64,000 nt of DNA from Candidatus Thorarchaeota archaeon (GTDB taxonomy: Archaea > Asgardarchaeota > Thorarchaeia > Thorarchaeales > Thorarchaeaceae): assembly GCA_013388835.1 (NCBI GenBank), contig JACAEL010000071.1, forward strand, positions 9,714 to 73,713, in the 5' to 3' direction. Position numbers and translations under genes: made by a program. This document shows positions 6,787-33,650 of the stretch, in pieces; the stretch's first letter is position 1, and the number at the start of each line of letters is the position of its first letter. The notes under the pieces were generated by a model. The model was not told where the DNA came from. It did no database searches and saw nothing but the letters and a program-made list of their open reading frames with translations.

Positions 6787-7302
6787 ATGAGGAAGGTGTG
6801 CATGATTGGTGCGGGGGGTAGTGGGAAGACCGCCCTTGTCAACCGATTCCTGACGCAGAAGTTCTCAGAGCAGTACATTGTCACGATTGGTTCTCAGTTT
6901 GCTGTGAAGACCGTGACCACCCAAGACGCGAAGGGTGCCGATGTTGTCGTCAAATTACTAGTCTGGGACTTGGCCGGACAGGAACGGTTCGACTTCATCA
7001 GGACAAGCTACTACAGAGGCTCGAAGGGTGCCCTCCTTGTCTACGATGTGACGCGCAAGAGCACATGGGTTGAGCTACCCAAGTGGATCCAGGAGACTGA
7101 CACTGCGCTGGGCCAGAGAATCCCCATAATCCTTCTGGCTAACAAAGTTGACCTTGTGGAAGAGCGAGTGATTACGACAGAGATGGGCCAAGACTTCGTC
7201 ACGGAGAACAGACTGGCAGGGTATCTCGAGACGAGTGCTCTCACAGGGCAGAATGTCGAGAAGGCCTTCCACCTTTTGGCGAAGGCGAGCATTAACGGCT
7301 AG
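6787..7302 (+). CDS. Rab/Ras-like small GTPase
   Basis: G1 GAGGSGKT, switch I YIVTIGSQF, G3 WDLAGQERF, G4 NKVD, G5 ETSAL. Start placed at the internal ATG at 6787 just before the P-loop; the track ORF begins at 6646. Confidence 0.8.
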   Translation: MRKVCMIGAGGSGKTALVNRFLTQKFSEQYIVTIGSQFAVKTVTTQDAKGADVVVKLLVWDLAGQERFDFIRTSYYRGSKGALLVYDVTRKSTWVELPKWIQETDTALGQRIPIILLANKVDLVEERVITTEMGQDFVTENRLAGYLETSALTGQNVEKAFHLLAKASING

Positions 7303-15114: not shown

Positions 15115-16776
15115 ATGATTCATAACACGTTCCTCATACGCGTTTCCACACTAAAGATCCTTGCAAACTCCAGCTATTGGCCTGTCAAGGTGAATCAGAA
15201 GGACATCAAGGAGTTTGTCACGACAAGTACTGAACTGAGGGCCGCAGATGTCAGTCTGAGAGATCTTCCGTTGATTGTGGGTGACAACAAGTTCGGTGGG
15301 AAGGAGATAGTAAAAGACCTCCTTCTGGTGTTCGCTTGCGACCGCAATGAGGATGATCACAGCCTCCAAGACCGATTGACGCAGGCTTCAAAGATTCTGA
15401 AGAAGCGAATTGCCGAGGTCGGACTCGATTCTGTCATTACAGATTATGCGCGGTTGATTGAGGAATCGGTCACAACGCGACTGAAGATTGCTCTCGTTGG
15501 GGAAGGTGGTGTGGGTAAGACCACTGCTCTTCATCTCCTTCTTGGGGACACTCCTCCACTCCAGTATGTACCCACAATCGCACTGAATCTTGAGACCGTT
15601 GAGAACATCCGATTTGGAAACTACTCTCTGGTCATCTGGGACTTTGCCGGGCAGGAGCGATTCAGGACGCTGTGGCGGTTCTACTTCCATGGTGCTGACG
15701 TCATCTTCCTGGTGTGCGACTCGACACTCAGGAATGTGATAATCAGCAAGGACATCCTGAAGCTTATTCGACGTGATGCTCCCAAGGTGCCCGTGTTTGC
15801 CATTGCTAACAAACAGGACAAGCCCAACGCCATGAAGCCTGAGGTTGTCCAGAAGGTCCTAGGTGTGCCTACCTACCCGATGGTGGCCATCGACAAGGCA
15901 AAGCGTGATGAGATGCTTCGGATCCTCATGACCGCAGCAGCACAGTATGTTGGAGTTGCTCTCCCAGATGTTCCAGCAAAGGACCTATTGCGATTCACTG
16001 ACGAGGCCACAGAGCGGGCCTCAAAGGTCACTGTTCGGGGCGAAAAGCAAACCAAAGCGACCGACGAAGGTGTTGTGGAAGTTGTGGAAGAGGTCCTTGT
16101 GGATGAGGCTGGCCATGTTGTGGAAGCAGATGGCGAATACGAGATAGTCGAAGAGGTCGAGGAAATAGTAGACACGGTTGAAGAGGAAACGCCATCAGTG
16201 CCCACAGCCAGAATGGAACCGGCCGCTCATACTGTAGAAGAGCAGGGAACGGTTGCAGAAGAGCAGGGAACGGTTACAGAAGAGCAGGGAACAGTTGCAG
16301 AAGAGCAGGGAACAGTTGCAGAAGAGCAGGGAACGCATCCTCCTTCAGATGATGTGGAACTGACCGCGGCAACTGAGAGCCAAGTCCGAATCAGCACTGA
16401 GCTGGGCGACGCTCAGATTGAAATCTCTGACTCGGAGATTGAGATCTCCGACTCTGAGATTGAGATTGAAGTGTCCGAAGAGGGAAACGGTGTTCAACTG
16501 GCCAAGGAGTTTCTGTGTCGTGAGCTTGAGGCTGACGAGATACTTGTCGAAGAGCTTGACGCCGTGCCCGCGACGGAGATTGACAAGGCCCTCGAAGCAC
16601 TCCGTAGCGACGAAGCAGCGGGCCCTGATGATGGCACACTCTCTCCCCAAGCAGTCGGTGACGATGAGAAGAAGGGACTAGTTCTTGTACTCGGACGCGA
16701 CAGTCTTCCCAAGTCTAATCAGGATGTCAAGGGCGGCACGAAACACACTGTAGAGTCCGGTACAGACGTAGAATGA
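15115..16776 (+). CDS. Multi-domain small GTPase: N-terminal unknown domain, Ras/Arf-like G domain, acidic tandem-repeat tail
   Basis: G1 GEGGVGKTT, switch I YVPTIALN, G3 WDFAGQERF, G4 NKQD. About 115 aa of unassigned sequence precede the G domain. C-terminal low-complexity tail with EEQGTVA x5 and SDSEIEI x3 repeats. Confidence 0.7.
   Translation: MIHNTFLIRVSTLKILANSSYWPVKVNQKDIKEFVTTSTELRAADVSLRDLPLIVGDNKFGGKEIVKDLLLVFACDRNEDDHSLQDRLTQASKILKKRIAEVGLDSVITDYARLIEESVTTRLKIALVGEGGVGKTTALHLLLGDTPPLQYVPTIALNLETVENIRFGNYSLVIWDFAGQERFRTLWRFYFHGADVIFLVCDSTLRNVIISKDILKLIRRDAPKVPVFAIANKQDKPNAMKPEVVQKVLGVPTYPMVAIDKAKRDEMLRILMTAAAQYVGVALPDVPAKDLLRFTDEATERASKVTVRGEKQTKATDEGVVEVVEEVLVDEAGHVVEADGEYEIVEEVEEIVDTVEEETPSVPTARMEPAAHTVEEQGTVAEEQGTVTEEQGTVAEEQGTVAEEQGTHPPSDDVELTAATESQVRISTELGDAQIEISDSEIEISDSEIEIEVSEEGNGVQLAKEFLCRELEADEILVEELDAVPATEIDKALEALRSDEAAGPDDGTLSPQAVGDDEKKGLVLVLGRDSLPKSNQDVKGGTKHTVESGTDVE
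16237..16341 (+). repeat. Tandem 21-bp repeat x5 (gaagagcagggaac[ga]gtt[ga]ca) encoding EEQGTVA heptads
   Basis: Direct read of the sequence. Five consecutive near-identical 21-mers. Confidence 0.8.
16414..16470 (+). repeat. Tandem 21-bp repeat about x2.7 (gagattga[ag]atctc[ct]gactc[gt]) encoding SDSEIEI
   Basis: Direct read of the sequence. Confidence 0.6.
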
Positions 16777-18975: not shown

Positions 18976-20430
18976 CTAACCCTTGATAACACCCATTGGT
19001 CTGAGTCGGACCACTTTCGTTGCAATCCCGACCGAGTCCGAGACCTTCACGACTTCGTCGACATCCTTGTAGGCTCCGGGTGCTTCTTCAGCAATCCCAA
19101 TGGCTTGGGGTGACTTGACTATGATGCCATCCTTCGCGAGACTGGCCTGTACCTCCCGACCCATAAACTCCCTCTTTGCCTTCTCACGGCTCATGAATCT
19201 GCCCGCACCGTGTGCTGTCGAGCCAAATGACAGTTCCATGGCGGTCGGGCTTCCAACGAGTATGTACGACGCCGTTCCCATTGTACCCGGGATCAGAACC
19301 GGCTGTCCGATGTTCTTGTACTCGGCAGGTGTCTCTGGATGACCGGGTGGGAATGCTCTCGTCGCCCCCTTCCTGTGAACTAGTACCTTGCGCTTCTTTC
19401 CCTCTACTACATGCTCCTCAACTTTGCCTATGTTATGTGCAACATCGTAGACCAGTCTCATCTGAAGGTCTTCAGCAGATTGCCCGAATACCTTTGCAAA
19501 GGCCTCTCTCGTCCAGTGCATCATCGCCTGTCGGTTGGCCCACGCATAGTTAGCTGCCGCGCTCATCGCACCCAAGTATGCCTGCCCCTCTGTTGAGGTG
19601 GTTGGCGTACAACACAGTTCTCTGTCCGGTACCTCGATGTTGTACTTCCTCATCGCTTGGGTCATGATTCTGATGTAGTCACTGCAGACTTGGTGTCCAA
19701 GACCTCTTGAACCACTGTGTATCATGACTGTGACCTGCCCGACCCTGGTTATTCCCATGGCCTTTGCAGCCGCCTCGTCATAGATTGTGTCCACGGTCTG
19801 AATCTCAAGGAAGTGGTTGCCCGAGCCAAGAGTCCCGACTTGCCCCACTCCCCTGCTCTTGGCGTCAGAGGACACCTTTGATGCATCAGCTATCTCAAGG
19901 CTTCCGCCAGCCTCTGTGTGTTCGAGGTCTTGCTCCCAACCGAGACCCTTCTCGATGGCCCACTTGGCACCGAGACTCAACACCTCGTCGACTCCTGATG
20001 AACCGCTCAGCCGGGTCAGTCCGGACTTTCCAACTCCCGTGGGTACATCTTGGAAGAGTCTGTCCACAAGTTCTCTTATCTTGGGTCTCACATCCTTCTC
20101 ATCCAGGCTGGTGGTCAGAACACGCACACCGCAGTTGATGTCATATCCGACCCCGCCGGGTGAAATGACCCCGCTGTCATAGTCTGTGGCCGCTACCCCG
20201 CCTATGGGGAAACCATAGCCCTGGTGTCCATCAGGAAGCACTATACTATGAGTGTAGACTCCGGGGAGGCATGCGACATTCGCTCCCTGCTCGAAGGTTG
20301 CGTCCTGTCGCATCTTATCTACAAGCCTCTGTGATGCATAGACTCTCACAGGTACTTTCATGCAGGGCTTGGTGCCCTTCGATATCTCGTAGACGTTGTC
20401 TCCTATTCTCTTGAGTTCCAAGACACTCAT
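18976..20430 (-). CDS. rtcB: RNA-splicing ligase RtcB
   Basis: RtcB blocks (GYGFPIGG, NCGVR, HNHAGR-like). Start placed at the internal ATG at 20430 (MSVLELKRI). Confidence 0.85.
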   Translation of the reverse strand: MSVLELKRIGDNVYEISKGTKPCMKVPVRVYASQRLVDKMRQDATFEQGANVACLPGVYTHSIVLPDGHQGYGFPIGGVAATDYDSGVISPGGVGYDINCGVRVLTTSLDEKDVRPKIRELVDRLFQDVPTGVGKSGLTRLSGSSGVDEVLSLGAKWAIEKGLGWEQDLEHTEAGGSLEIADASKVSSDAKSRGVGQVGTLGSGNHFLEIQTVDTIYDEAAAKAMGITRVGQVTVMIHSGSRGLGHQVCSDYIRIMTQAMRKYNIEVPDRELCCTPTTSTEGQAYLGAMSAAANYAWANRQAMMHWTREAFAKVFGQSAEDLQMRLVYDVAHNIGKVEEHVVEGKKRKVLVHRKGATRAFPPGHPETPAEYKNIGQPVLIPGTMGTASYILVGSPTAMELSFGSTAHGAGRFMSREKAKREFMGREVQASLAKDGIIVKSPQAIGIAEEAPGAYKDVDEVVKVSDSVGIATKVVRLRPMGVIKG

Positions 20431-20585
20431 CTCCGGCCTGTCTTCGTTGTCAGCAGAGTCTTTTGCTATAAGCGTTCCGAAACAGCCCAGTCCTGTGCGT
20501 CGCCGATTGCTTATTATGTGGCATTTCCAGTAGCTGAAGGTTGGTCCTGACAAGAAACAATGGACCAAGGAGGACAGAAAGCCGA

Positions 20586-21623
20586 GTGACCGACATACGG
20601 CTCACATCAATGGTGACAACTCATGGCTGAAGCTGTAAGGTAAAGCAAGATGAACTCACAGGCCTTCTGCAGGCGGCTGGTCTGCTGGAACCAGGAGCTG
20701 TCTGTTCAGGCGGGCTCGGAGAGGATGCTGTGGTCAGAGTAGTTCGCGAGGACCTCGCCGTGGTTGAGAACATCGACGTCTTCACTCCAATTCATGACGA
20801 CCCATTTGTGCAAGGGCAGATTGTTGCTTGCAATTCAACCAACGATGTCTTCACCATGGGGGTCACCGAGATTCTCTCCCTTCAGGCCTTCCTCGCCTAT
20901 CCTCCCACAGTGACCAGGGCTGTCGCGGCTGCTGTCCTGCGTGGAATGAACGACTTCATGAAGTCGGTTGGTTCACGCGTAATGGGTGGCCAGACCATAA
21001 CAAATCCCTGTCCTGCTTTCGGGGGTGTATGCATGGGCATTGCTCGACCCGACGAGATCATTCACTCTAACGGAGCTCGTGTCGGGGATGTCGTGGTACT
21101 CACAAAACCCCTAGGGATACAACCCGCAATGCGATCATATCGCGACATACAGGACGAGTCGAAGCGCGACCCTCTTCTTGCGCGATTCACTACGACCGAG
21201 CTGGAACGGATGCAGCAGACTGCAGTACGAATAATGACAAAGAGCGCTCTTGAAGTCGCGCGAGCGATGAGAGAGGTCGCCGCCCATGCTGCCACTGATG
21301 TCACTGGATTCGGCCTGCTCGGACATGGCTCTAATCTTGCTCGTATGAGTGGTGTCGACATTGTCTTCAGTCAGGTCCCAGTCATTCAGGGCACGCTTGA
21401 ACTGGCCAAGTTCTTTGGTCATCGACTCGCCACCGGGCGCGGCGCAGAAACAGCAGGAGGTGTGCTTGTGGTCATCGACAAGTCCCGTGTCGAGGAGTTC
21501 TGTGGAATCCTCGAAGGTCAGTCCCTCCCATGTTGGATTGTCGGCGAAGTGACTCGACCTAGTGGACTTCCCGAGGCAAGATTGGCCTCGGATGTTCAGT
21601 ATCTCGAAACTGGGTTCCCGTGA
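20586..21623 (+). CDS. selD: Selenophosphate synthetase SelD, selenocysteine-containing (in-frame UGA at 20628-20630)
   Basis: Manual translation from the GTG at 20586 gives (M)TDIRLTSMVTTHG-U-SCKVKQDELTGLL..., which aligns with E. coli SelD [30 protein letters not shown]. The TGA falls on Cys17. Downstream motifs DVFTPIHDDPFVQGQIV...DVFTMGV match SelD TDFFMPIVDNPFDFGRIA...DIFAMGG. An AAGGAGGA motif sits 12 nt upstream. The ORF track starts at 20730 because of the UGA. Confidence 0.75.
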
Positions 21624-21654
21624 TGTGGTCTTAACCCTCTGGGATTGCCACTGA

Positions 21655-21680
21655 GGACGGCCGCCGCAAGCGGCCAGTTT
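21655..21680 (+). promoter_or_regulatory. GC hairpin in the selD 3' UTR (GGCCGC-cgcaa-GCGGCC); candidate SECIS-like element
   Basis: Perfect 6-bp stem with a 5-nt loop, about 35 nt after the selD stop. No covariance-model support available. Confidence 0.15.
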
Positions 21681-21735
21681 CAAACCTCGGTCAGTTCTCT
21701 TCAGTCAGTCGCCGCTAGACAGCCCCTTCTGGTGG

Positions 21736-21900
21736 CTACCCGAGCAGGTGGTTCAGGCTGTCAAACAGCTCAGTGATGCCTTCCAGTGAGGAGAGGTCAA
21801 TCTCTGGGTCGATGAACTTCCTCAGCTCGGCAATCTCTGCGAGTTCTGGTTCTCGGAACAGCCAGAACTCCTCTTGGACCATTTCTCTAGACTCGGCCAT
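21736..21900 (-). CDS. Small acidic hypothetical protein (54 aa)
   Basis: Manual reverse translation gives MAESREMVQEEFWLFREPELAEIAELRKFIDPEIDLSSLEGITELFDSLNHLLG. It is the only ORF in a 470-bp gap. Confidence 0.15.
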   Translation of the reverse strand: MAESREMVQEEFWLFREPELAEIAELRKFIDPEIDLSSLEGITELFDSLNHLLG

Positions 21901-22097
21901 GTTCGACTTCACTCCAAAGTGAATCTCACAGTATACTTCGTGTTTTGCCGATATAACTTCTTTGTATGTGCCCTATTCTAGCGACATTGTGTCCTGACAG
22001 CGCCGGGTCTCAGCCCGAGCATCCAACGACAAACCATTTATCTCCCGGTTTACTGCAAGGTTTGTGCGGCTCTAGTTATCCAAGATGGTGAGCGTGA

Positions 22098-22799
22098 ATG
22101 AAGATTGTTGTAACGGGTCCATACGAAGCTGGCAAGAGCCTTCTCATTCATCACATAACAAATGGTGCATGCATAAACGTGGAACGGCGCGGGACCACCA
22201 TTGCCATGGATCATGGTGTGGCTAACGTGGATGGTATGACCGTCTTCCTCTTTGGCACTCCGGGTCTTCTGCGCTTCAGAACGATGCGAAAGATACTGAG
22301 TTCAGGTGCTGATGGAATCGTATTCGTAGTTGACTCAGCAGACAAGGAGTCCGACGCAAGAGCCAAGATGTTCTTCAGGGAGATTGCCTTCTTCCTTCCC
22401 GGTGTCCCCTGCGTGGTTGCTGCCAACAAACAGGACCTCTCTGCCGCCCGGCCAGTGGATGTATTGAGGGAGGACATGCGTTTCTTGGCCGGCGTTCCTG
22501 TGATACCGGTGTCCGCAAAGACAGGTGCAAATGTGGATGCTATGCTTCGCACGCTCCTGTTTCTTACCATGATGCAATGGAGTTCAGTCTTCACCAAGTT
22601 CGCTCAGTACAGCGGCACCTCCCACGGACTCAGTAGCCTGATGTCCGACCTGAAGATGGGGCGTGACCAAGTAGTCGGGTATCTTCGTAGATTCGAGCTC
22701 AGAAAGCTCCTTGAGGTGCAAGTGGGCGACGAGCAGTTCGTGGTCCGGGACTCTGTGAGACCTCTCTTGGAGAATCCGTCGATGCTCGTACGACGCTAG
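22098..22799 (+). CDS. MglA-like small GTPase
   Basis: P-loop GPYEAGKS, G3 with PG (FGTPGLLRF) as in MglA, G4 NKQD, 233 aa. Confidence 0.7.
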   Translation: MKIVVTGPYEAGKSLLIHHITNGACINVERRGTTIAMDHGVANVDGMTVFLFGTPGLLRFRTMRKILSSGADGIVFVVDSADKESDARAKMFFREIAFFLPGVPCVVAANKQDLSAARPVDVLREDMRFLAGVPVIPVSAKTGANVDAMLRTLLFLTMMQWSSVFTKFAQYSGTSHGLSSLMSDLKMGRDQVVGYLRRFELRKLLEVQVGDEQFVVRDSVRPLLENPSMLVRR

Positions 22800-22855: not shown

Positions 22856-23782
22856 GTGAACCCCATGACCGAGGGCGACTCTTTCGAAGACCTTGACCCA
22901 GTACAACTCCTTGAACAGGCCGCAGCAGCTGAGCAAGCGGGTGACAAATCGACCGCGGCCAAAATACTCAACACGGTGGGCAATATCTACATGTCTGTTG
23001 CAGACTATCAGGAGGCCCTTACGAACTTCGAGCGTGCACTGAAGATGTATCAGGAGTTGGAAGAGGCGGCCGGAATTGGGGACACTATCTACAATCTCGG
23101 AGTCGCTCAGATCAACCTTGAGCGCTGGGAGGATGCTGCCAAGACCCTCAGTGAAGCTCTCGCTTTCTTTGAGAAGACCTCCAACGAAGATGGCACTGCA
23201 GACGCGCTCTACGGGTTGGCTCTTGCAAAGCTCGGTATGAATGCATTCGAAGAAGCCATGGAGTTCTTCAAGAAGGCCCAGCGTGTCTACAAGGCTGCCG
23301 GAAATGAGCAGGGCTTCGTGAGCACAGTCATGGATATCGGTAATGCATATGCCGACAAGGAGGACTGGGAGAACGCTGAGAAGACCTTCAAGAAGGCCCT
23401 GACAATCTATCGAGAACTGGATGACGCATCCGGCATCGCAGACGCTCTCTCGTTGTTGGGTGACATTGCTGAGACGCAGGAGAACCAGAAGAAGGCAGTG
23501 GAGCTGTTTGTGGAGGCTGCTCAATACTACGTCAAGGCTGGGATACTCGATATCGCCAGAGAGGTCATAGAACGAGCCGAGAGCAAGCTCTGGGATGTGC
23601 CCAAGGCAACTCGACGGCGCCTAAGACCGATGATTGACGAGGTGATTGACAACCTTCCTGAAGAACCTGAGGAAGAGGCGGAGGACGGGTCCGAACTCAG
23701 CGACGAGGACTTTGATGAGGAACTACTAGACATCGGGACTGAAGGTGAGGACTACTCCGACACGGACAACGACGTCGAGTGA
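22856..23782 (+). CDS. TPR-repeat protein with an acidic C-terminal tail
   Basis: Multiple 34-residue TPR-like units (W-LG-Y-A-F-A-P consensus positions). C-terminus EEPEEEAEDGSELSDEDFDEE... Confidence 0.75.
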   Translation: MNPMTEGDSFEDLDPVQLLEQAAAAEQAGDKSTAAKILNTVGNIYMSVADYQEALTNFERALKMYQELEEAAGIGDTIYNLGVAQINLERWEDAAKTLSEALAFFEKTSNEDGTADALYGLALAKLGMNAFEEAMEFFKKAQRVYKAAGNEQGFVSTVMDIGNAYADKEDWENAEKTFKKALTIYRELDDASGIADALSLLGDIAETQENQKKAVELFVEAAQYYVKAGILDIAREVIERAESKLWDVPKATRRRLRPMIDEVIDNLPEEPEEEAEDGSELSDEDFDEELLDIGTEGEDYSDTDNDVE

Positions 23783-23870
23783 TGTGGCACGAGCAGGCTC
23801 TGACGCCCGGTGGAACCGCAGACAAAACTCTAATACAGTTGCTTCCCTCTCCGGTCTGTATCCGAAGAGG

Positions 23871-26800
23871 ATGACTGTCATGTCCAAAGACTGCCGCAGT
23901 TTGCTCACCATCCTGACCTTTCTCCTAATCTTAGGTGCTAATTGGAGTCCTGGATTGCTTCAGAACACCGCCTCAGAGCATGCACGCGCCGGAGTGTTTC
24001 AACTGGCGGAGTTCATGGACACCTACAATACTGTTCCTCTGCGACGCGCTACCCTTGTCCATGCGGATTCCTCTTCCTACGTCGACGAGTTTGCGTATAT
24101 GGCCTCTATCCCGTCAGGCGTCTTCGTGAACGGTACTAGCCGATATATCTCTCCCATTCTCTTCTTCAATCAGTCCGACTCACAGAGATGGCTTCTTGAG
24201 GACTGGGTGGAGTATCTCGATGTCGATGGCGGGGTTACTCAGTTCACGGTGGTCGGGGATGCCACACTTGAGTCTGTGGAGTCCGTTGCTACAGCGCTCG
24301 GTGTGGTACCTTACCCATGGGTGCGGGGAGGGACCTCGGCAGAGATTGCAGCTTATCTTGCACTGGCCGACTGGAGCGAATCCGACTCTGCGGTCGTCGC
24401 CCTCTCACATGATGCCTGGACCACTCCTACTCCCCTGACAGGGGAATCGAGTCGGTCGATGGAGGGACTGACGACTGTGACACAGACCAGTCAAGTCACA
24501 GTCCTTTCCGACAACCCCTTTTCAGTATCCTTCTCTTCCACCTCCGGTGTTGGTTGGCTGGAGGGCGCATTCAACTGGACAGGTGACTTCTGGTGCACTC
24601 ATGTCTTGGACGATCCCCTTGGACATCATGTGGACTACTCGATAAGGAGCCAGACCTACTGGGAACGCTTCAGTCCACTTGTCCATGCGCCCGTGCCTCT
24701 CTACTTCTGGTATCCGAACACCGCAAACGGCACATGGGATGTCACAATCACTCCTCAATCGATAGGCATCTTCCCTGTCGTTCTTGACTTCGAGCTTATT
24801 CTTCACCCCGGGTACACGGAGTCTATCTCGGTCCCAGCCAACGCAAAGTCACTGGACGTCACTCTGTCTTGGGACAAGAGGGGTACTGACCTCAATCTCG
24901 CTCTGATCGACCCACAAGGACGGCTTGTCCAGTGGGCCCCCTCGGGTAGCCTGATCTCTGGTCCGGGACGCGAGTCTGTTTCGGTACCATACCCGATGGA
25001 GGGAGAGTGGCAGGTCGTTGTCGCCTGGATGAATGCTAATGGCGAGCAGAACAACGCGAAGGTCTCATGGGTCATTGAGCGGTTGCCTCAGGACCTGCAG
25101 TATTTTCTCGAGTCTGCTGCCAATGGTGCCGTCCTTGCTTCCCTTCTCAACTCCCCACTATTGTATACAGACGCAGCATCGGTCCCGGAGATAACGTCTT
25201 GGGTCATTGAAGAACTCGATGTCAACCACATCTTCTTGGTTGACCCCGCCAATCTGCACTCTGTATCGGTCATGACAGAACTCAGTTCACTTGGTGTTGT
25301 GGTCAATCTCTACAACTATCCCCTGGTCTCACAGTGGATTCGCCAGCTGTCCAAGAGCAATGATGTTGTCATCACTATTCCGCGTGGTGATGCATCGGAG
25401 TTCTTTCCAGCAGCTGCATACTCTGCAGCGTTTCATGGTGCTCCAGTCTTCTCTCTGTGTGACCAGCACAACGTGATGACCACGAGAGCTGAGGCAACAT
25501 GGTACCCGTATCTCATAGGACCAGAGATCGACATCTACATCACCAGTAGATACTCCACACGAAGTGAGAACGGCTGGTTCGACGAGCGCATACCTAACCG
25601 TTATACGATGACGAGTTCGGTTGAGGCGTTCGAGGGTTTCCTAGACGACCGGGGTGCGTATAACTCGACTGTCCCTCAGAAAGTGGTAGTCGTGTCCCCT
25701 GATACTGTCATCAAGACAAGCTTCGACCGGTCCATACAGAGCCACTTCTTGCCCGGTCGGATTCCTGCCGCAACACCCTCTCTGGCAGCGGTGCAGGTCA
25801 ATCGTGCGGCTCTCCACAGGTTCATTTTCCGGATCGCTGAGTCCGCAGACCGTGCGCTAGTGACGATGTATGCGTACACTCACGGTGCTCAGTTCATTGA
25901 CAACGGTGCCCAGATCCATACCATCTACCAATTTGAGAACACATCCGACTCTGTTCAAGACGCCGGGTTGGAAGTCGATGCTCATGTGGGCTACAGCGAA
26001 GTCTTCGCATCTCTCGCGGCTCAACCTGCCCTGTGGGTCCTTAGCACCCACGGGACGCTGACGCGCTATCCCACGGACCCTCCAGCTCGCCCGGGTGGAG
26101 ACGGTCTCTTCTCTCTGCGCAGCACGGATGCAGAGTATGGTCGTGAGAGTTCGTCAACCAGAGACGCAAATGCAGACAAACTGGTCAACCCTGTCCAGTT
26201 CACGGAAGAGGAGTCTCTTCATCGAATCGAGTCGACCGCCACGCTCGCGGCCGGTGTGGGTAACATGGGGTCTCCCATTGTTATTCTCACAGCCTGTCTT
26301 CTAGGAGGTTCAATGCTTCCCATGACGCTCATGGAGCACGGGGCTGTGTCAGTTGTGGCCTCGCCACGCACAGTCTATTTCCAGCCGGCTGCGATGGTAT
26401 CTCTGGTCATGCTTGAAGACCTCGCCAGCGGTGAGACCATTGGTAGCGCGCTTGGTCATGGAATCGTGCAGGTCTCATATGACTATTCAAATCCGCCCAG
26501 CCAAGACCCCAGAGACTATGCATGTCAGCATGTGCTCTTCGGCGATCCGAGCATCATGCTCTATGACCCTGATGCTGTTCCAAGGGTGCCTGCTGTAGAT
26601 GGGCAATCTGCAGTCTTTGGCTCTCACGTACCTGGACGTGGAACGAACCCGGTGGCTGCACTGGGCACCTCGAGTACGCTTCCGTCGGCACTCACACAAG
26701 CTGGCGTGGACTATGACTATTATGAGGTTGATAACTACTCTGGCTTCCGTAGCCTCCTTCCAGTCCGGAAGTGCGTGATTCTAGAACCTGGCTCTTACGA

Positions 26801-27743
26801 CTCATTCTCCGCATTGATGGCTGTAGATGCATCTGCTCTGGCAACATTTGTGTCCGGCGGTGGTGTCTTGGCCCTGATTGGCGTGTCCGACGATAGTGAA
26901 TGGCTCCCGTGGGGAGCTTCAGTCGACGAAGGTCCTAGCGGCCTGTCTATCGAACTCACTGACACTACACACCCTCTGATGACAACTCCCAATCTCCTCA
27001 ACAGCAGCACATCTTACCAAGGCCGTTTCTTGTCCATGTGGGAGAACTACTCGGTCCTTGCCACCGACCCCATAGGACCCGTAATCATCGCATCTTCTGT
27101 CGGCTTTGGAAAGGTGATGCTGTCAACCATCCGTCCTAGTGGCGAATGGCTGAACCAGTTTGTGGAGAACATCGCTCTGTGGGGCAACCAGCCGTCGCTG
27201 TGGTTGAGATCCATCTCACTCAGTCAGGTGATCATATGGGGCGGAGACCGTGTAACGGTCGTGCTCCGTATCACGGACCGTGTTGGCAAGCCTGTCTCCG
27301 GGGTTGCTCTGAGTCTACGGTTGAACTCCTCAGATGTCAGTGACAGACTCCACGAGACCACTCCTGGTCAGTTCAGCATACTGTTGGACGAGACGTGGAC
27401 GAATGAACATGTGGGTATGTTGACATTGAACCTGACAGCGAAGAAGGCTGGGCATGACACACTCACACTTGTGCTGTACCGATTCATGTACGTCCGGCCG
27501 TCGCCCTGGCCTGCGATAGCGATACTCTCGATTGGGATAATAGCGCTCTTCGTCGGGTATGCATATATCAAGCGACGCAGAGGTGAGACAATCCTACCAT
27601 CATGGCACCTTGGAAGCCTCATCAGAAGAGACAACATGACCAGAGAAGAGCGCAAGCGGAAGAAGGAGGAGGAACGCAGACGGAGAGAGGAGCGAAAGAA
27701 GAAGGAATCGGAGTTTGATGCCAAGGAGTTCTTTGGTGTATGA
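23871..27743 (+). CDS. Large (about 1,290 aa) type-I membrane surface protein with a highly charged cytoplasmic tail
   Basis: Signal peptide at the internal ATG at 23871 (MTVMSKDCRSLLTILTFLLILGA). Many NxS/T sequons. C-terminal TM helix AIAILSIGIIALFVGYAYI followed by an RRRGE...REERKRKKEEERRRREERKKKESEF tail. Confidence 0.6.
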   Translation: MTVMSKDCRSLLTILTFLLILGANWSPGLLQNTASEHARAGVFQLAEFMDTYNTVPLRRATLVHADSSSYVDEFAYMASIPSGVFVNGTSRYISPILFFNQSDSQRWLLEDWVEYLDVDGGVTQFTVVGDATLESVESVATALGVVPYPWVRGGTSAEIAAYLALADWSESDSAVVALSHDAWTTPTPLTGESSRSMEGLTTVTQTSQVTVLSDNPFSVSFSSTSGVGWLEGAFNWTGDFWCTHVLDDPLGHHVDYSIRSQTYWERFSPLVHAPVPLYFWYPNTANGTWDVTITPQSIGIFPVVLDFELILHPGYTESISVPANAKSLDVTLSWDKRGTDLNLALIDPQGRLVQWAPSGSLISGPGRESVSVPYPMEGEWQVVVAWMNANGEQNNAKVSWVIERLPQDLQYFLESAANGAVLASLLNSPLLYTDAASVPEITSWVIEELDVNHIFLVDPANLHSVSVMTELSSLGVVVNLYNYPLVSQWIRQLSKSNDVVITIPRGDASEFFPAAAYSAAFHGAPVFSLCDQHNVMTTRAEATWYPYLIGPEIDIYITSRYSTRSENGWFDERIPNRYTMTSSVEAFEGFLDDRGAYNSTVPQKVVVVSPDTVIKTSFDRSIQSHFLPGRIPAATPSLAAVQVNRAALHRFIFRIAESADRALVTMYAYTHGAQFIDNGAQIHTIYQFENTSDSVQDAGLEVDAHVGYSEVFASLAAQPALWVLSTHGTLTRYPTDPPARPGGDGLFSLRSTDAEYGRESSSTRDANADKLVNPVQFTEEESLHRIESTATLAAGVGNMGSPIVILTACLLGGSMLPMTLMEHGAVSVVASPRTVYFQPAAMVSLVMLEDLASGETIGSALGHGIVQVSYDYSNPPSQDPRDYACQHVLFGDPSIMLYDPDAVPRVPAVDGQSAVFGSHVPGRGTNPVAALGTSSTLPSALTQAGVDYDYYEVDNYSGFRSLLPVRKCVILEPGSYDSFSALMAVDASALATFVSGGGVLALIGVSDDSEWLPWGASVDEGPSGLSIELTDTTHPLMTTPNLLNSSTSYQGRFLSMWENYSVLATDPIGPVIIASSVGFGKVMLSTIRPSGEWLNQFVENIALWGNQPSLWLRSISLSQVIIWGGDRVTVVLRITDRVGKPVSGVALSLRLNSSDVSDRLHETTPGQFSILLDETWTNEHVGMLTLNLTAKKAGHDTLTLVLYRFMYVRPSPWPAIAILSIGIIALFVGYAYIKRRRGETILPSWHLGSLIRRDNMTREERKRKKEEERRRREERKKKESEFDAKEFFGV

Positions 27744-27848
27744 GTGTTTTGCGCAAATGAGTGGGTCGGACGCCCCATTCTCATAACAAGATTTTATAGT
27801 GGAGTGGATGCGACTCACCTCATCTACCTTGGTGTAGAGGTCAGCCAG

Positions 27849-28211
27849 ATGGCAAGCCGTGTAGACAAGATCAACTCAGCAATTCGCGATTTTGAAACAG
27901 TGCCCGGTGTGGAGGGCGCCGCACTAGTCTCTAGTGATGGTCTGATGATATCGTCAGCATTGCCTGAGAGTGAGCAGGAGCGCGTTGCCGCAATAAGCGC
28001 TGCGATGCTCTCCCTGGGTGAGAAGATCTCAGGTGAGCTCAATCGCGGCAGTTTCCTTGAAATATACGTGAAGAGTGAGAGGGGTTACACACTGATGACC
28101 TCTGTTGGGGACAATGCCCTCATGATGGTCCTGGCCAAGCCCGACGCACAGCTGGGGCTTATCTTCCTAGACATGAAGAGGCTGGCTCAGAGCCTCGTAG
28201 ACATACTGTAG
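27849..28211 (+). CDS. Roadblock/LC7 domain protein (MglB-like)
   Basis: Typical Roadblock pattern from the internal ATG at 27849: VPGVEGAALVSSDGLMISS...AAMLSLGE...GYTLMTSVGDNALMMVL. Confidence 0.75.
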   Translation: MASRVDKINSAIRDFETVPGVEGAALVSSDGLMISSALPESEQERVAAISAAMLSLGEKISGELNRGSFLEIYVKSERGYTLMTSVGDNALMMVLAKPDAQLGLIFLDMKRLAQSLVDIL

Positions 28212-28223
28212 ACGTGTGACCAT

Positions 28224-29480
28224 TCACCGGCGTCTTTTGTCAAGCCGCTCAACGACCAAGTCAATCAGCCGTCGAGCAACGTCCCTCTTTGAGGCCATGG
28301 GTACGTGTTCCAGAAACCCGTCCTCTCCCACTATCACCACTTCGTTGGTGTCGGAGCCGAACGCTACACCTCTCTTGCGTTCGTCGTTTCCCACTACGAG
28401 GTTGCATACCCCTGACAGTATCTTCTCGCGTGCCTTTGACTCGAGTTCGGCCTCACTGACCCCTGACTCGACTTTGAAACCCACTATGAACAGGTCGCTG
28501 TACTTGCGTCTCACCGTGTCGATTATCTTCGGGGTGGAGACCAACCTCACAGTGTAGGACTCGCCCGACGGACGTTTCCTGTCCTCCCTCTCCTCAGGCT
28601 CGAAGTCGAGCACTGCAGCCGACGAGATGAACACGTCAGCCTTCCTGTCTGCTATCGAAGAGAGTACTGAGTCGAGCATCTCCTTGGCAGTCTCGACTCG
28701 GATGGTGTCTAGGTGTTCGGGAACAGGTTGGCTCGTGGGGCCAAGCACCAATACGACCTCTCCTCCTCTTGCAGCTATCTCTTTCGCTGTCTCAATGCCC
28801 ATCTTGCCAGTCGATGGATTGGTCATGAAGCGCACGCGGTCCAGCCAACCTCTGGTGGGACCAGCTGTCACAACGAAGCTGTGCCCAACAAGGTCTCTGG
28901 GTCCCAGTATCTCAAAGACGGTCTCGACGACGGCTTCCACCGAGGAGATCTTCGCCTTGGCCTCTTCCATTCTTGGCGCCACTACTCTCACTCCCATGTC
29001 CTTCAGTCTCTGAATGTTGGCCAAGACTGCGGGATGATCATAGAGGGACTTGTGCATGGCGGGCACGATCACCACCGGTATGTGTGCTCCTATCGCAGAG
29101 GACACTGTTGTTGTCACAGGCGTGTCGTCTATGCCATTAGCTATCTTACCTATCGTGTTCGCCGTCGAAGGAGCAACAAGGACAAGGTCCACATGCTCGG
29201 GGTGGTCTCCGGCCAGACTTACGTGCTCAATCTGTCCTGTAAGCTCGGTTATCACAGGGTTTCCTGTTGCCCACTCCAGCAAGAACGGGTGAATGATCTT
29301 CTGTGCGCTCTCGCTCATCACCGAGTAGACCTCTGCCCCATGACGCATCAATGTGCGTGACAGATTCACACACTCGACAGCTGCCACGCTTCCTGTGACA
29401 CAGAGGGCAATTGTCTTTCCTGCTAGTGTGCTGCTGAGGCTACCCACAATCAGCTTGGAAGTGTGTTTCATGGGGAGCAA
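28224..29480 (-). CDS. coaBC: Bifunctional phosphopantothenoylcysteine decarboxylase / phosphopantothenate-cysteine ligase
   Basis: N-terminal flavoprotein motifs (LCVTGSVAA, PAMH, VAPSTANTIGKIANGIDD) and the C-terminal CoaB domain. Confidence 0.85.
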   Translation of the reverse strand: MLPMKHTSKLIVGSLSSTLAGKTIALCVTGSVAAVECVNLSRTLMRHGAEVYSVMSESAQKIIHPFLLEWATGNPVITELTGQIEHVSLAGDHPEHVDLVLVAPSTANTIGKIANGIDDTPVTTTVSSAIGAHIPVVIVPAMHKSLYDHPAVLANIQRLKDMGVRVVAPRMEEAKAKISSVEAVVETVFEILGPRDLVGHSFVVTAGPTRGWLDRVRFMTNPSTGKMGIETAKEIAARGGEVVLVLGPTSQPVPEHLDTIRVETAKEMLDSVLSSIADRKADVFISSAAVLDFEPEEREDRKRPSGESYTVRLVSTPKIIDTVRRKYSDLFIVGFKVESGVSEAELESKAREKILSGVCNLVVGNDERKRGVAFGSDTNEVVIVGEDGFLEHVPMASKRDVARRLIDLVVERLDKRRR

Positions 29481-29874
29481 ACTGACACCCTGTCATCAAG
29501 TCGGGAGCGCGTACTATTAACTTATCTGACCTCACCATCCGAGAATGGTACGCTGTACGCTCGTGTTTGCCTAATCTCCTCTCGTATACCTCATCGTCGC
29601 GTTTGTGCGTCGGTTTCCATGAACTCGAGACCTGCGTATGTGACTGTCGTTGGTGCGCTGCAGTAGTCTTCGGAGGGATTCCGCCGCCCGTCTGGACACT
29701 CCGGGCGGTGTCAATCTGGTAGTATGTACCACATGGCTCCTCTTGGCAGGAATATGGCTTCCGTGGATTGGATGCCCAACAGACTCAACAACATATCGGC
29801 CGTGTCATACCTACTCGTTGATGAGTAGCATGGTGTGCTTGAGCAAAGAATATATGCGCCAAGATTGGTGAGCG

Positions 29875-30834
29875 ATGGCAGTCTGCACTGCAGCCAGCCC
29901 CTGTTCAGACTTTAGAGGCATGCTCTGTGATTCAGGATTCCACACGTATGCCGCGCGCTTGGTGCTGAGACCTAGTTCGGAGGTGATTGAGAGAGCGTTG
30001 GCAAGGTCCTTAGACTGGGATGAGGTCCTTGGTGGTCTTTCACAGGAGAAGCGGGCTCGCTACATGGCATACGCAGAAGTTCTCGACTCGCTGGGAACGC
30101 CAAACCAGTCGATGTTCGTCTTGGACAGTGACAGCGAGTTTGACACATTCGACCGCGACTTCAGGGAGTTTCTCGCTCTCAGCGGGCGCGTGCCAAGTGA
30201 CAAGAAAGACCCTCCCTATCACGTCGTGAGGGTGGGTTATGATGGTGATATGCTCGACGACATGTTCCGAGTTGTGATCTCTCACGAGTCCAAGAACTTC
30301 AATCCTGCGAGACTGGACTCAAACATGCTCTACTCTAAACAGGCAATCTTCCAGCATCTCTACAACATCATCACCAAGGATCGGTTTGTCGTATTTCATG
30401 TCACGGAGTTTCCTCTGGCCTACTACTTCGAAACCGCTGTTGTAGTGGATGTTGAAGACCTCTCCGATGTCATGGACCAGACTGTGCATGACGAGACGAT
30501 CATGAGATACCTGAATGACCTCCGCAGACTTGGCCCGGACGAGCATCGCAAGACTTACAGCTTCTTCTACAGGATTAGCACCTCCCTCCTGATGGAGCTG
30601 TCCAATGCATTCCTGGTGGTTCCCACTGCAGAGATGAGCCGCCACATTGTGGTGACCAGCTGGCGCACGCAGACTCTTCTCTTGGGATTCAGCCCTCTCA
30701 CATGGTCCTCTGGCAGTTTCAGAATGTACGACTTGAGCGGTCGTGATATCGACGGCCGGTGGGCCTTCCCTGTTGCTTCCACCAGCGATGACCCGCGTGA
30801 GAAGGGCTACACTCGGCTGGTGCCTCTTGACTGA
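29875..30834 (+). CDS. Hypothetical protein embedded in the CoA biosynthesis locus
   Basis: 319-aa ORF with protein-like composition and no recognisable motif. Confidence 0.35.
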   Translation: MAVCTAASPCSDFRGMLCDSGFHTYAARLVLRPSSEVIERALARSLDWDEVLGGLSQEKRARYMAYAEVLDSLGTPNQSMFVLDSDSEFDTFDRDFREFLALSGRVPSDKKDPPYHVVRVGYDGDMLDDMFRVVISHESKNFNPARLDSNMLYSKQAIFQHLYNIITKDRFVVFHVTEFPLAYYFETAVVVDVEDLSDVMDQTVHDETIMRYLNDLRRLGPDEHRKTYSFFYRISTSLLMELSNAFLVVPTAEMSRHIVVTSWRTQTLLLGFSPLTWSSGSFRMYDLSGRDIDGRWAFPVASTSDDPREKGYTRLVPLD

Positions 30835-30931
30835 GCACAGGCCGCCATGTATATACACGTATATCCTGACTGGTGTCATCAATGAATGCATTTATACATG
30901 GCTTCTCAACACCTTCAATGAACGAGAAGCC

Positions 30932-31852
30932 ATGTCCTCGACTGAATTTGTCCGGTCATTTGTCCCCGGACATGTCACAGGTCTGTTCAGAATCATGGAC
31001 GGACCCGAGGACCCTTTGCAACGTGGTTCAGTCGGCGGGGGCTTCTCTGTAGAAATGGGAACGCTGACGACAGTGGCGTTGGAGCATCGCAATGAGACCA
31101 CGATTGATGTGTTCTACAACGGGACACCAATAGACGCTCCAGTGACACGTATGGTGGTAAAGAGAATGCTTGACGAGTCTGGCTCCGAACATGTCCATGT
31201 GACAGTGCGCCACGAGTCCGCACTGCAGATAGGGGCCGGGCTTGGGGCATCAGGAGCAGGGGCTCTCGGTACAGCCCTGTCTCTTGGAGAAGCCCTTGGA
31301 CAACACATGACTGTGAACGATGCTGCGCGTCATGCCCACAGTGCCGAAGTCCTGAACCGCACTGGTCTGGGCGATGTAATAGGTCAGGTTGTTGGCGGCG
31401 TAGAGGTGAGGTTGAAGCCTGGTGCTCCGGGGATAGGGCAGGCAGTACGTCTGGAATACCCCCGGGATATGCATGTCGTGTTGGCTGCCGCGAGCGGGAT
31501 TGAGACAAAGGCCGTACTCAGTGACCAAGACAAGCGGAAGCGCATCAATGAGTCCGGTGGCAGGCTGGTCGCTGATCTCCATCGGAGTCCTTCATTCGAG
31601 ACACTGATTGCAAAGTCTCGGGAGTTCACTGAGGCGACCGGTCTGTCTGCTCCTCGCGTTAGGAAGGCGCTCAAGCTCCTCTACGATGCAGGGTTTGAGG
31701 ACTCAAGCATGGTAATGCTTGGCGACTCGGTGTTCTGTTTCTGCGACGATGGGAGTGTACCGCGTGTGATCGATCTGCTCTGTAGACTGTGGCCCAGGTC
31801 CGAGGTACATGACACACACATTGCAGAAGTGGGAGGGCGTGTCCTGAGATGA
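30932..31852 (+). CDS. Pantoate kinase (archaeal GHMP-family, PoK)
   Basis: GHMP-kinase N-terminal block SFVPGHVTGLF, Gly-rich GAGLGASGAGALGTA. Position immediately upstream of PPS. Start at the internal ATG at 30932. Confidence 0.65.
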   Translation: MSSTEFVRSFVPGHVTGLFRIMDGPEDPLQRGSVGGGFSVEMGTLTTVALEHRNETTIDVFYNGTPIDAPVTRMVVKRMLDESGSEHVHVTVRHESALQIGAGLGASGAGALGTALSLGEALGQHMTVNDAARHAHSAEVLNRTGLGDVIGQVVGGVEVRLKPGAPGIGQAVRLEYPRDMHVVLAAASGIETKAVLSDQDKRKRINESGGRLVADLHRSPSFETLIAKSREFTEATGLSAPRVRKALKLLYDAGFEDSSMVMLGDSVFCFCDDGSVPRVIDLLCRLWPRSEVHDTHIAEVGGRVLR

Positions 31853-32667
31853 CCAGCACTGAGATTCCACATGATCACCCCCGAAGGGTCTCCCTGGAGA
31901 TTCGTCACAGGATAATAGAGGGACACAGAGCCAGTGTTGTGGCCACTGCAGGGCTGCTAGCGCATGGTCGTGGCGAGGCATTCGACTACTTGATTGGAGA
32001 ACGCACAACAGAAGTGGCTCGAATCGCCTCTCAAGTTGCGGTCGCGCACATGCTCTTGGCGAAACACCCAGTGATTAGTGTCAACGGAAACGCATGTTCG
32101 CTAGTGGCAAGAGACCTTGTGACCCTCTCCAATCTCACAGGCGCACCCCTCGAAGTCAACCTGTTCTACTACTCACCCGAGCGCGAGGATGCCATTGTCC
32201 ATGCTCTGAGGGAGGCTGGCGCATCAGAAGTCTTGGGCACCAGAGACCGTCCATCTGTCACGATTCCAGAGCTAAGTAGCAACAGGCGGAAGGTCGACCC
32301 GGAGGGTATTGGCGGAGCTGATGTTGTTCTGGTGCCGCTTGAAGACGGCGACCGAACAGAGGCACTCCGAAGAGTCGGCAAGATGGTCCTTGCAATCGAC
32401 CTCAATCCGATGAGCCGGACCTCAGTCCATGCGAACGTCACGGTTGTAGACAACATCGTCCGTGCCCTTCCGTTGATGGTGGAATTCGCACGAGACCTGT
32501 CCAATGCAGACACTTCGACTCTCAGACGCATAACCACCCACTTCGACAATGCTGAGAACCTGAGAGAGTCTGTTGACATTATGCTTCAGCATCTACAGGA
32601 GTGGGCTCTTTCGTTGCACACACAGTCTGGAGAAACCTTGAGAAGCAGGGAGGTTCAGACACGATGA
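31849..32667 (+). CDS. 4-phosphopantoate-beta-alanine ligase (archaeal phosphopantothenate synthetase, PPS)
   Basis: LLAHGRGEAFDYLIGE matches the archaeal PPS/COG1701 family. ATGA overlap with both neighbouring genes. Confidence 0.7.
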   Translation: MTSTEIPHDHPRRVSLEIRHRIIEGHRASVVATAGLLAHGRGEAFDYLIGERTTEVARIASQVAVAHMLLAKHPVISVNGNACSLVARDLVTLSNLTGAPLEVNLFYYSPEREDAIVHALREAGASEVLGTRDRPSVTIPELSSNRRKVDPEGIGGADVVLVPLEDGDRTEALRRVGKMVLAIDLNPMSRTSVHANVTVVDNIVRALPLMVEFARDLSNADTSTLRRITTHFDNAENLRESVDIMLQHLQEWALSLHTQSGETLRSREVQTR

Positions 32668-33650
32668 AACTGGTCTTCGTAGGCGCGGGAGCAGTCGGCT
32701 GCATGTATGGCGGTATGTTGCTGCTTTCCGGTCACCATGTCACCTTTGTAGGTAGACCCCCGCACACAGATGCAGTCCGAGAGCACGGTCTACATGTCAG
32801 CGGCGTTATGGGCGACCACGTCCTGCACCCGCAGATAACAGACGATGCGTCCACCATATCTCGCGCCGATTTCGTCTTCATCACAACCAAGGCGTATGAC
32901 ACCTTGGAAGCTGCTCGAGAGATTCGTCATCTGGTGGATTCAGGGTCATACGTTGTCATTCTTCAGAACGGCATAGGAACTGAGAGGGCTGTCGCGAGTG
33001 AGCTTCACACTACAAGAGTGATACGTGCTACAACCTGTGCCGGTGCCAGGAAGACCAGTCACAACGAAGTGGTCATCACAGGTTTCGGTGTCACGGAGAT
33101 TGGCACGCACTATCCCGAGCATCAGGACGCCACTCAGACCGTAGCCTCCCTAATCGAGAAGGCAGGCTTCCCTGTCAGGGCATCGGCAAACCTTGATGGA
33201 CTGGTATGGACCAAGACAATCGTGAACTGTGGCATCAATCCCGTCGGTGCCCTGACAGGAATGACAAACGGGGAGATTCACGACTGTCTCTCTCTCCGAC
33301 CGGTCGTCATAGGTCTAGTTGACGAGGCGACCCGTGTTGCCCGTGCGATGGGCATTCACTTGACCACTGATGACCCTGTCCGCTACACACTTGGGACAGC
33401 CAAGGCTACCGCGAGCAACATCAACTCGATGCTTCAAGACCTAAGAGCAGGGAAGCGTACCGAGATTGACCACATGACGGGTGCTGTCGTACGTCTCGGA
33501 CGAGAGCTGGGCGTCCCAGTCCCTCTGAGTGAGGCGGTATACGCTCTTGTGACCGCTCTTGAGTCGAAGGTCCGTTCTCGCCAACAGAGGCTCTCTCGTG
33601 AGGAAACACTGACCCCAGAGCGGCTTATCCAAGAGCTGACATCTAGCTGA
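32664..33650 (+). CDS. panE: 2-dehydropantoate 2-reductase (ketopantoate reductase)
   Basis: N-terminal Rossmann MKLVFVGAGAVGCMYG, ApbA/PanE pattern. Start at the ATG at 32664, which overlaps the PPS stop. Confidence 0.75.
   Translation: MKLVFVGAGAVGCMYGGMLLLSGHHVTFVGRPPHTDAVREHGLHVSGVMGDHVLHPQITDDASTISRADFVFITTKAYDTLEAAREIRHLVDSGSYVVILQNGIGTERAVASELHTTRVIRATTCAGARKTSHNEVVITGFGVTEIGTHYPEHQDATQTVASLIEKAGFPVRASANLDGLVWTKTIVNCGINPVGALTGMTNGEIHDCLSLRPVVIGLVDEATRVARAMGIHLTTDDPVRYTLGTAKATASNINSMLQDLRAGKRTEIDHMTGAVVRLGRELGVPVPLSEAVYALVTALESKVRSRQQRLSREETLTPERLIQELTSS

Follow-up and report, generated by a model that had tools for sequence, protein, structure and literature searches.

Selenocysteine (Sec) decoding in Asgard archaea is the closest described counterpart of the system treated here, a selD gene for selenophosphate synthetase (SelD) that carries an in-frame TGA codon and lies in a 64,000-nucleotide stretch of Candidatus Thorarchaeota DNA (GCA_013388835.1, contig JACAEL010000071.1), hereafter the window. 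In a survey that covered over 400 Asgard genomes, Huang, Xiao & Zhang (2024, ISME J, PMC11227280) report that 77.4% of Thorarchaeia use Sec and that SelD is itself a selenoprotein in more than 90% of the Sec-using Asgard archaea. The selD genes of Thorarchaeia, they add, carry type II elements that resemble the eukaryotic selenocysteine insertion sequence (SECIS) and are termed eSECIS-like; many of these have a GUGA_GA core, unpaired bases of the form [U/A][A/G]AA and a lower stem of the form G[A/U]G_C[U/A]C. They also state, citing Mariotti et al. 2016, that UGA stops often overlap the AUGA core, and report that SECISearch3 gave nothing significant.

Mariotti et al. (MBE, PMC4989117) described the SECIS of the Loki SPS gene as similar to type II; its main stem is short and it carries a further, apical stem. 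In Lokiarchaeota VhuU.1 they noted an AUGA core that doubles as the stop codon, and they explained why a nearby UGA escapes recoding. No SBP2 is known in Asgard archaea (PMC4989117; PMC11227280). The defining feature of the methanogen SECIS is a kink-turn-like motif, GAA_A, in which two adenines are invariant; changes of GAA to GGA or GAG are inactive in Methanococcus maripaludis, in which a lokiarchaeal SECIS is likewise non-functional (Peiter et al. 2025, RNA Biol, PMC11881835).

In the supplement of Huang et al., the entry Thorarchaeia_GCA_013388835_U is identical to the window translation of 20541-21620, with X at the TGA. The Sec-containing SelD that a first-pass annotation of the window had proposed is correct, and had already been published in 2024 for this very gene and signal type. 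That annotation had also argued that a Sec-SelD narrows the source to a few archaeal lineages, some Asgard archaea among them, and the window does come from a Thorarchaeota metagenome-assembled genome (MAG). Outside the window, the same supplement lists for GCA_013388835 two further Sec-containing proteins of FrhA/VhuU type (...VVRCYDCXLSCGAH...) and a second SelD, Cys-type and fused to a NifS-like N-terminal domain. We conclude, with a probability of roughly 0.93, that codon 15 of the window selD, a UGA, is decoded as Sec under the direction of a kink-turn SECIS that overlaps the stop codon.

Coding sequence and in-frame TGA of selD

Translation of positions 20586-21626 gives VTDIRLTSMVTTHG*SCKVKQDEL..., in which the TGA at 20628-20630 is the sole internal stop. 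The open reading frame (ORF) caller had run the selD frame from GTG 20730 to 21623, starting 3' of this TGA, and the first-pass annotation had extended it upstream to GTG 20586; direct reading and translation bore out all of these coordinates. We scored the extended ORF with Cys substituted for the TGA. Its best-scoring SelD model was the NCBIfam equivalog PRK14105/NF010705, matched along its full length with 305.6 bits against a cut-off of 291 (residues 2-340 on profile positions 4-343 of 345), and TIGR00476 was matched with 213.2 bits against a cut-off of 125. The extended product contains AIRS (PF00586) and AIRS_C (PF02769) domains and matched solved SelD/SEPHS1 structures (E = 6.5e-46), the closest being human SEPHS1 and Leishmania SelD. 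The profile comparison that the annotation had called for thus places the ORF firmly in the SelD family.

The position of the TGA within the protein is equally clear. Residues 3-30 align without a gap to residues 5-32 of E. coli SelD (3u0o), which puts U15 on C17 and K18 on K20; the UGA lies inside the conserved loop, at the Sec/Cys column, and the Lys20 equivalent is present, as had been predicted. In the A. aeolicus SelD structure 2yye, a Cys stands at this column. Asp47, Asp64, Asn83 and Asp87 fall on E. coli Asp51, Asp68, Asn87 and Asp91, the ATP/metal-binding residues of that enzyme. Judged from its sequence, 20586-21623 reads as a complete, catalytically competent selenophosphate synthetase.

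For the comparison across species we used 14 Sec-form Thorarchaeota loci, namely the window and 13 homologues with DNA retrieved. A scan of genome contigs with the SelD alignment, relying on universal SelD motifs, gave at least three Thorarchaeota loci and at least one Helarchaeota locus, plus Cys-form outgroups. A metagenome scan with a codon pattern for FIET[DE]FP returned 120 stretches, of which L121 was the sole selD; the pattern was too degenerate. All 14 Sec-form Thorarchaeota loci share the column of the TGA, and so does one Helarchaeota locus among the matches listed; directly 5' of this codon the motif (V/I)RLTAMVT(T/S)HG is conserved across Sec-form loci. Cys stands at the TGA column in Bathyarchaeota and haloarchaeal homologues and in one Thorarchaeota homologue; the latter, P0002, is the closest relative of the window SelD (70% identity) and reads HG-C-SCKVKQDEL.

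The pattern of nucleotide change argues for translation across the TGA. In the 11 codons before it, pairwise differences number 205, 38 and 474 at codon positions 1, 2 and 3, and in the 11 codons after it 208, 117 and 506. Arg and Leu are each written with five different codons in the stretch before the TGA. Since the differences there are dominated by third positions, much as they are 3' of the TGA, the stretch is translated in the same frame, under protein-coding selection that extends across the TGA.

The first-pass annotation had placed a Shine-Dalgarno-like motif before GTG 20586, and the motif is indeed there, at a spacing kept in 14 of 14 loci: GGAGG-N12-GTG, with TTG in one locus, lies exactly at codon -14 in every Sec-form Thorarchaeota selD. 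In several of the 14 an in-frame stop immediately precedes the conserved GTG. The conserved motif and spacing, together with the upstream stops, fix the start at 20586.

Between GGAGG and GTG, many orthologues (L002, L003, L121, L209-L212) carry a mini-ORF of three codons (AUG/UUG-AGU-CAC-UAA/UAG), located about 20 nucleotides 5' of the selD start and abutting it. The window counterpart (20569-20588) has no AUG, and in L202 the AUG of the mini-ORF is in frame and open (MSHRV...). The mini-ORF could be a translational coupling or regulatory feature.

Public annotation misses the Sec residue, as the first-pass annotation had said of the ORF call. GenBank NWF96816.1, the SelD of this Candidatus Thorarchaeota MAG, has 318 amino acids, is 100% identical to the window product and starts 3' of the TGA, and database homologues are almost all called at approximately 296 amino acids. 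NWF96816.1 and most database copies of the orthologues are N-terminally truncated because gene callers stop at the Sec codon. The value of the finding is thus practical, in that automated Asgard annotations systematically lose the catalytic residue of SelD.

The RNA element overlapping the stop codon

Every Sec-form gene ends in CC[A/G]-TGA, followed by a conserved element of about 60 nucleotides. We aligned window positions 21603-21690 with the equivalent region of the 13 orthologues (alignment A2) and scored explicit structure models. The element extends over approximately 21606-21681, with its kink-turn core at 21616-21657 (Table 1). In the full model, 94.0% of the alignment cells are paired, versus 83.8% in column shuffles and 33-46% when the partners were slid, and 13 pairs show compensatory changes; none of 500 shuffles reached the observed values. 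RNAalifold, given the alignment alone, returned the same five helices, including the UCC/GGA pairing.

The helices contribute to this signal in different ways. Helix II co-varies at all of its eight pairs (85.7% of cells paired). Helix I, with seven pairs, is paired in 100% of cells over the 14 loci and is compensated at both of its variable positions: GAG becomes GAA together with a C to U change in the window, and ACC becomes ACU together with G to A in three loci. Hairpin B has a consensus stem of five base pairs (21660-64 with 21670-74) that is 97.1% paired, with compensatory changes at three of the five, and most loci have a YGCRA loop; C21674 of the window can pair with G21613 too. The C-stem (three pairs, 97.6% of cells paired) and the ministem (two consensus pairs, 92.9%, CC/GG conserved in 13 of 14 loci) show no compensatory change.

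Invariant letters lie around the stop codon and opposite it. UUCCC-R-UGA is invariant in 14 of 14 loci, as is GAGG, and the final A of GAGGA is present in 13 of 14. The A at alignment column 34 is likewise invariant. The unpaired bases above helix II are UAA in the window and AAAA or AAA in orthologues. As letters, the invariant positions fit the canonical kink-turn consensus, with a bulge of C-R-U across the loci, and the stop codon supplies, as its final two letters, the G and A of the bulged strand. Tandem sheared pairs would form between G21653 and A21623 and between A21654 and G21622, with helix II as the non-canonical stem. The features of a type II eSECIS-like element are found together here: a position at the 3' end, an [A/G]UGA...GA core, an upper stem of eight co-varying pairs (criterion 6-15 base pairs), unpaired adenines above that stem, and a ministem.

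The element is tied exclusively to Sec-form genes in the loci compared. A covariance model built from the SECIS alignment (R1) matched the 3' ends of Sec-form Thorarchaeota selD only; the rest of the 64-kb window gave no match, nor did 10 Cys-form loci (L201, L005-L013). The Thorarchaeota locus L201, which encodes the Cys-form relative P0002, serves as a clean natural control (L201:3001-4241, GCA_053491595.1, contig JBRCDP010000005.1): its selD encodes one extra C-terminal residue and stops with TAG, only 32 nucleotides separate it from the next gene, a convergent small ORF, and the whole SECIS is missing. Its upstream neighbour is a thymidylate kinase in place of RtcB. L201 looks like a recent Sec-to-Cys conversion in which the element was lost and the stop switched.

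We propose that UGA codon 15 would be recoded from approximately 990 nucleotides downstream by this eukaryote-like (Asgard eSECIS-like, type II) SECIS. The RNA would fold as a three-way junction in which helix I closes the Glu-Thr codons onto the 3' untranslated region (UTR), followed by the kink-turn, helix II and hairpin B. By analogy with eukaryotes and with proposals for Asgard archaea, the kink-turn would recruit the Sec-specific elongation factor with Sec-tRNASec, either directly or through an L7Ae-type protein, and the factor would deliver Sec at the distant UGA. The terminal UGA, inside the SECIS, would not be recoded.

A more specific proposal is that the selD SECIS of Thorarchaeota, and perhaps of Helarchaeota, functions as a selD-specific three-way junction rather than as the published two-helix eukaryote-like hairpin. 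The closing helix may then come from the penultimate Glu-Thr codons and the C-stem from the Phe-Pro codons and the stop codon, while hairpin B with its YGCRA loop may be a functional module of its own, specific to selD. The available published text states no such architecture. We hold this proposal only tentatively and think it rather doubtful; if it is true, hairpin B might offer a second contact for a protein, through which SelD would take precedence in Sec insertion under selenium scarcity.

The 3' flank of the Helarchaeota selD (L004:3880-3965) has a minimum free energy fold with the same three-way layout, as a single sequence with z = -1.3. Its closing helix is CUUGGUG/CACCAAG, the core of its kink-turn arm reads AUGA...AA, and a second GC hairpin (GUGCC/GGCAC) has CGCAA within the loop. 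The element begins just 3' of the stop codon and does not include it. The shared layout is no more than suggestive.

A pyrimidine-rich tract lies 3' of the SECIS, at 21682-21700 in the window (CCUCGG), with CUCCUC, UCCUC and the like at equivalent positions in L002, L209 and L210. Both the GAGGA of the kink-turn and the GGAGG of the 5' Shine-Dalgarno-like motif are complementary to this tract, which could allow an alternative conformer or a 5'-3' contact. Separately, an extension of hairpin B by GAGG/UCUC pairing showed no compensatory change and was ranked below helix I; it could be an alternative conformer.

Several observations weigh against Sec decoding by this element. To our knowledge there is no experimental proof of Sec insertion for any Thorarchaeota gene, the window selD included. 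Folding of the window copy alone recovered only helix I (z = -1.38); a single-sequence z of about -1.4 is uninformative by itself, so only the comparative analysis carries weight. Helix II of the window has just five standard pairs plus mismatches. The C-stem and the ministem are conserved and never co-vary, and therefore rest on conservation and the kink-turn consensus. GAGG could be an alternative partner for the 3' strand of helix I, an arrangement that is 100% compatible across the alignment and shows no compensatory change. Rfam SECIS families gave no match in the window at the gathering threshold, nor any in 20500-21900 with the limit relaxed to E<=10. Finally, the Sec machinery that the first-pass annotation expected elsewhere in the genome is absent from the window: among the 51 window ORFs run against Pfam or NCBIfam, none encodes EFSec, PSTK or SepSecS, and ARAGORN found no tRNA, tRNA-Sec included, in the 64 kb.

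Four weak Rfam matches (ncS54, Hrs13, Lst thermometer, sR44) were attributed to chance.

The alternative that holds up best, improbable though it is, concerns the identity of the signal. The first-pass annotation had singled out the GC hairpin at 21659-21675 as a candidate SECIS-like element, and it could be the SECIS itself, of the methanogen (euryarchaeal) type: it is perfect, GC-rich, conserved and co-varying, it sits in the 3'UTR as in Methanococcus, and a GAGG/UUUC lower stem could lengthen it. It lacks the defining GAA_A motif, however, the flanks being GAC_AG in the window and GAG_AG, GAUU_CG or others in orthologues. The GAGG/UCUC lower stem lacks the compensatory changes that the competing helix I has, and the invariant UGA...GA kink-turn and the 8/8 co-varying helix sit in the other arm. 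Huang et al. (PMC11227280), moreover, judged eaSECIS-like matches in Asgard archaea to be probably non-functional. The hairpin is thus real, as annotated, yet it is the accessory arm of the three-way junction and not the defining kink-turn.

Slightly less credible is a read-through of the UGA with another amino acid, by a near-cognate Cys or Trp tRNA or through reassignment of UGA in the lineage. Nothing in the window indicates which amino acid is inserted. Of the 55 ORFs called there, however, 24 terminate with TGA, which has therefore not been reassigned; the site is the known Sec/Cys position of SelD, and the SECIS-like kink-turn element co-occurs strictly with the UGA. The other selenoprotein genes listed for the same assembly, and the Sec trait in 77% of Thorarchaeia (both from PMC11227280), also speak for Sec.

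That TGA 20628 is a true stop, with a product that begins at GTG 20730 or at the start of NWF96816.1 and is a SelD without its catalytic loop, is very unlikely. The ORF caller and GenBank both start after this TGA, and TGA is a normal stop in this genome. Against this, the 14 codons before it are conserved as protein with mostly third-position changes, a Shine-Dalgarno motif and a GTG are conserved at codon -14, and the column is Cys in relatives. The truncated protein would be without the equivalents of Cys17 and Lys20, and the co-varying SECIS is found in TGA-containing genes only.

We give hardly any credence to a bacterial-type SECIS, a hairpin in the coding sequence (CDS) just 3' of the UGA, for which no supporting evidence was found: there is no conserved hairpin beside the recoded UGA in the 14 loci, RNAalifold of the 66 nucleotides after it gave -2.5 kcal/mol and five weak pairs with no compensatory change, and third-position variation there is as free as elsewhere. 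An assembly or sequencing error or a pseudogene, conceivable in a MAG, is the most remote of all, as the same TGA occurs in 14 independent assemblies and the Helarchaeota locus and the ORF is otherwise intact.

Genes around selD

Synteny is conserved across Thorarchaeota, in the order EamA, RtcB (-), selD, an ORF of 54-58 amino acids (-), a Ras/Arf-like GTPase, a TPR protein and a protein of about 1300 amino acids. The window ORFs otherwise include housekeeping genes, several Asgard-type small GTPases, a Roadblock/LC7 protein, a cluster for coenzyme A biosynthesis and a SufS-like enzyme. None of the 51 ORFs belongs to a further known selenoprotein family, and the 64-kb window has no second selD.

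Table 1. Features of the selD locus and of downstream genes, in window positions.
Feature	Position	Strand	Remarks
Shine-Dalgarno-like AAGGAGGA	20567..20574	+	11 nucleotides 5' of GTG 20586 (direct reading)
selD CDS, full	20586..21623	+	GTG start, 345 sense codons including Sec15, terminal TGA 21621-21623 (translation)
In-frame TGA, Sec15 codon	20628..20630	+	E. coli SelD Cys17 position
Lys18 codon AAG	20637-20639	+	homologous to E. coli Lys20
SECIS helix I, 5' strand GAAACUG	21606..21612	+	in CDS, Glu-Thr codons of the C-terminal ETxFP motif; pairs with 21675-21681
Kink-turn bulged strand	21616..21623	+	C-stem UCC 21616-18 (Phe/Pro codons), bulge C-G-U 21619-21, G-A 21622-23
Helix II and type-II apex	21624..21652	+	5' strand 21624-31, unpaired UAA 21632-34, 3' strand 21645-52
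Ministem	CCC 21635-37 / GGG 21641-43	+	RNAalifold, conservation
Kink-turn non-bulged strand GAGGA	21653..21657	+	GGA 21655-57 pairs with UCC 21616-18
Hairpin B GGCCGC-CGCAA-GCGGCC	21659..21675	+	third junction arm, between kink-turn and helix I 3' strand
SECIS helix I, 3' strand CAGUUUC	21675..21681	+	3'UTR; pairs with 21606-21612
Ras/Arf-like small GTPase	22098-22799	+	conserved beside selD as far as fetched flanks reach
TPR protein	22856-23782	+	conserved beside selD as far as fetched flanks reach
1332-amino-acid protein, no Pfam domain	23745-27743	+	conserved beside selD as far as fetched flanks reach
Roadblock/LC7 protein	27744-28211	+	next in the window gene string
Dfp/CoaBC	28224-29480	-	coenzyme A cluster
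GHMP-family kinase, probably pantoate kinase	30743-31852		coenzyme A cluster
Phosphopantothenate synthetase	31849-32667		coenzyme A cluster
Ketopantoate reductase	32601-33650		coenzyme A cluster

Upstream of selD, the RtcB ORF (18976-20568, -) was called with 530 amino acids from a TTG start, and its orthologues are called at 461-507. The ORF is probably over-extended, the conserved sequence beginning near MSVLELKRIG, which would put the start at about 20430; this start would leave a divergent intergenic region of approximately 155 nucleotides before selD.

Convergent with selD lies an ORF of 58 amino acids (21736-21912, -) with no Pfam match. Its protein is 49-65% identical in nine Thorarchaeota loci, the Cys-form locus included, and carries the motif EFWLF...ELRKFIDPE[IL]DL...LNHLL. 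We conclude that the ORF encodes a genuine small protein; as the Cys-form locus has it too, it is not tied to the SECIS.

The GTPase next to selD and the Roadblock partner resemble the kind of MglA/MglB-type module that is typical of Asgard genomes. The window encodes other small GTPases at 6646-7302, 15115-16776 and 35564-36442. The archaeal coenzyme A biosynthesis cluster occupies 28224-33650. A class V aminotransferase (34325-35449, -) shows weak SufS/CsdA-type similarity (best 125 bits, under every NCBIfam cut-off) and 36 bits to the SclA selenocysteine lyase model; it could mobilise sulfur or selenium, but nothing ties the gene to selD.

Comparison with known systems

At the protein level the window SelD shares its fold family and N-terminal loop, with Sec or Cys and Lys in register, with the SelD of E. 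coli (Cys17/Lys20) and of A. aeolicus (Sec13). Identity to these is approximately 25-30%, and the bacterial genes use a SECIS within the CDS. With the elements of Methanococcus and Methanopyrus the Thorarchaeota element has in common the 3'UTR location, a GC-rich apical stem and an orthologous Sec-SelD; it differs from them in that their defining GAA_A motif is absent.

Eukaryotic type II SECIS elements, such as that of SEPHS2, share with it the kink-turn core [A/G]UGA...GA, a helix II topped by unpaired adenines, and a ministem. Action from the 3' end over a distance, and a minimal-distance rule by which a nearby UGA stop is spared, would be shared as well. The Thorarchaeota element differs in its shorter helix II of approximately 8 base pairs, in the extra hairpin that makes a three-way junction, in its overlap with the CDS and in having no Rfam match. 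The lokiSECIS is similar in being a 3'-end kink-turn element that resembles eukaryotic type II, may overlap the CDS and has a core UGA that can be the stop. The stop overlap was noted there for VhuU.1, whereas in Thorarchaeota selD it is found in 14 of 14 loci as CCR-UGA, with a G/A-UGA core and not AUGA only.

Asgard Sec decoding has been proposed as a bridge from archaeal to eukaryotic SECIS elements, SelD being the one selenoprotein shared with eukaryotes, and that case is already in print for this clade and this gene. What the present comparison adds is structural and small: covariation over 14 loci backs an additional hairpin arm and a closing helix that is embedded in coding sequence. 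The available text of Huang et al. contains neither hairpin B nor the UCC/GGA C-stem, nor does it mention the compensatory synonymous Glu-Thr changes or the Cys-form sibling with TAG; we do not claim these as new. In the features given there, the window element matches theirs as type II with a GUGA_GA core and an unpaired bulge, UAA here, and there is no difference in kind. Their lower stem G[A/U]G_C[U/A]C corresponds to GAA/UUC in the window and to GAG/CUC in orthologues.

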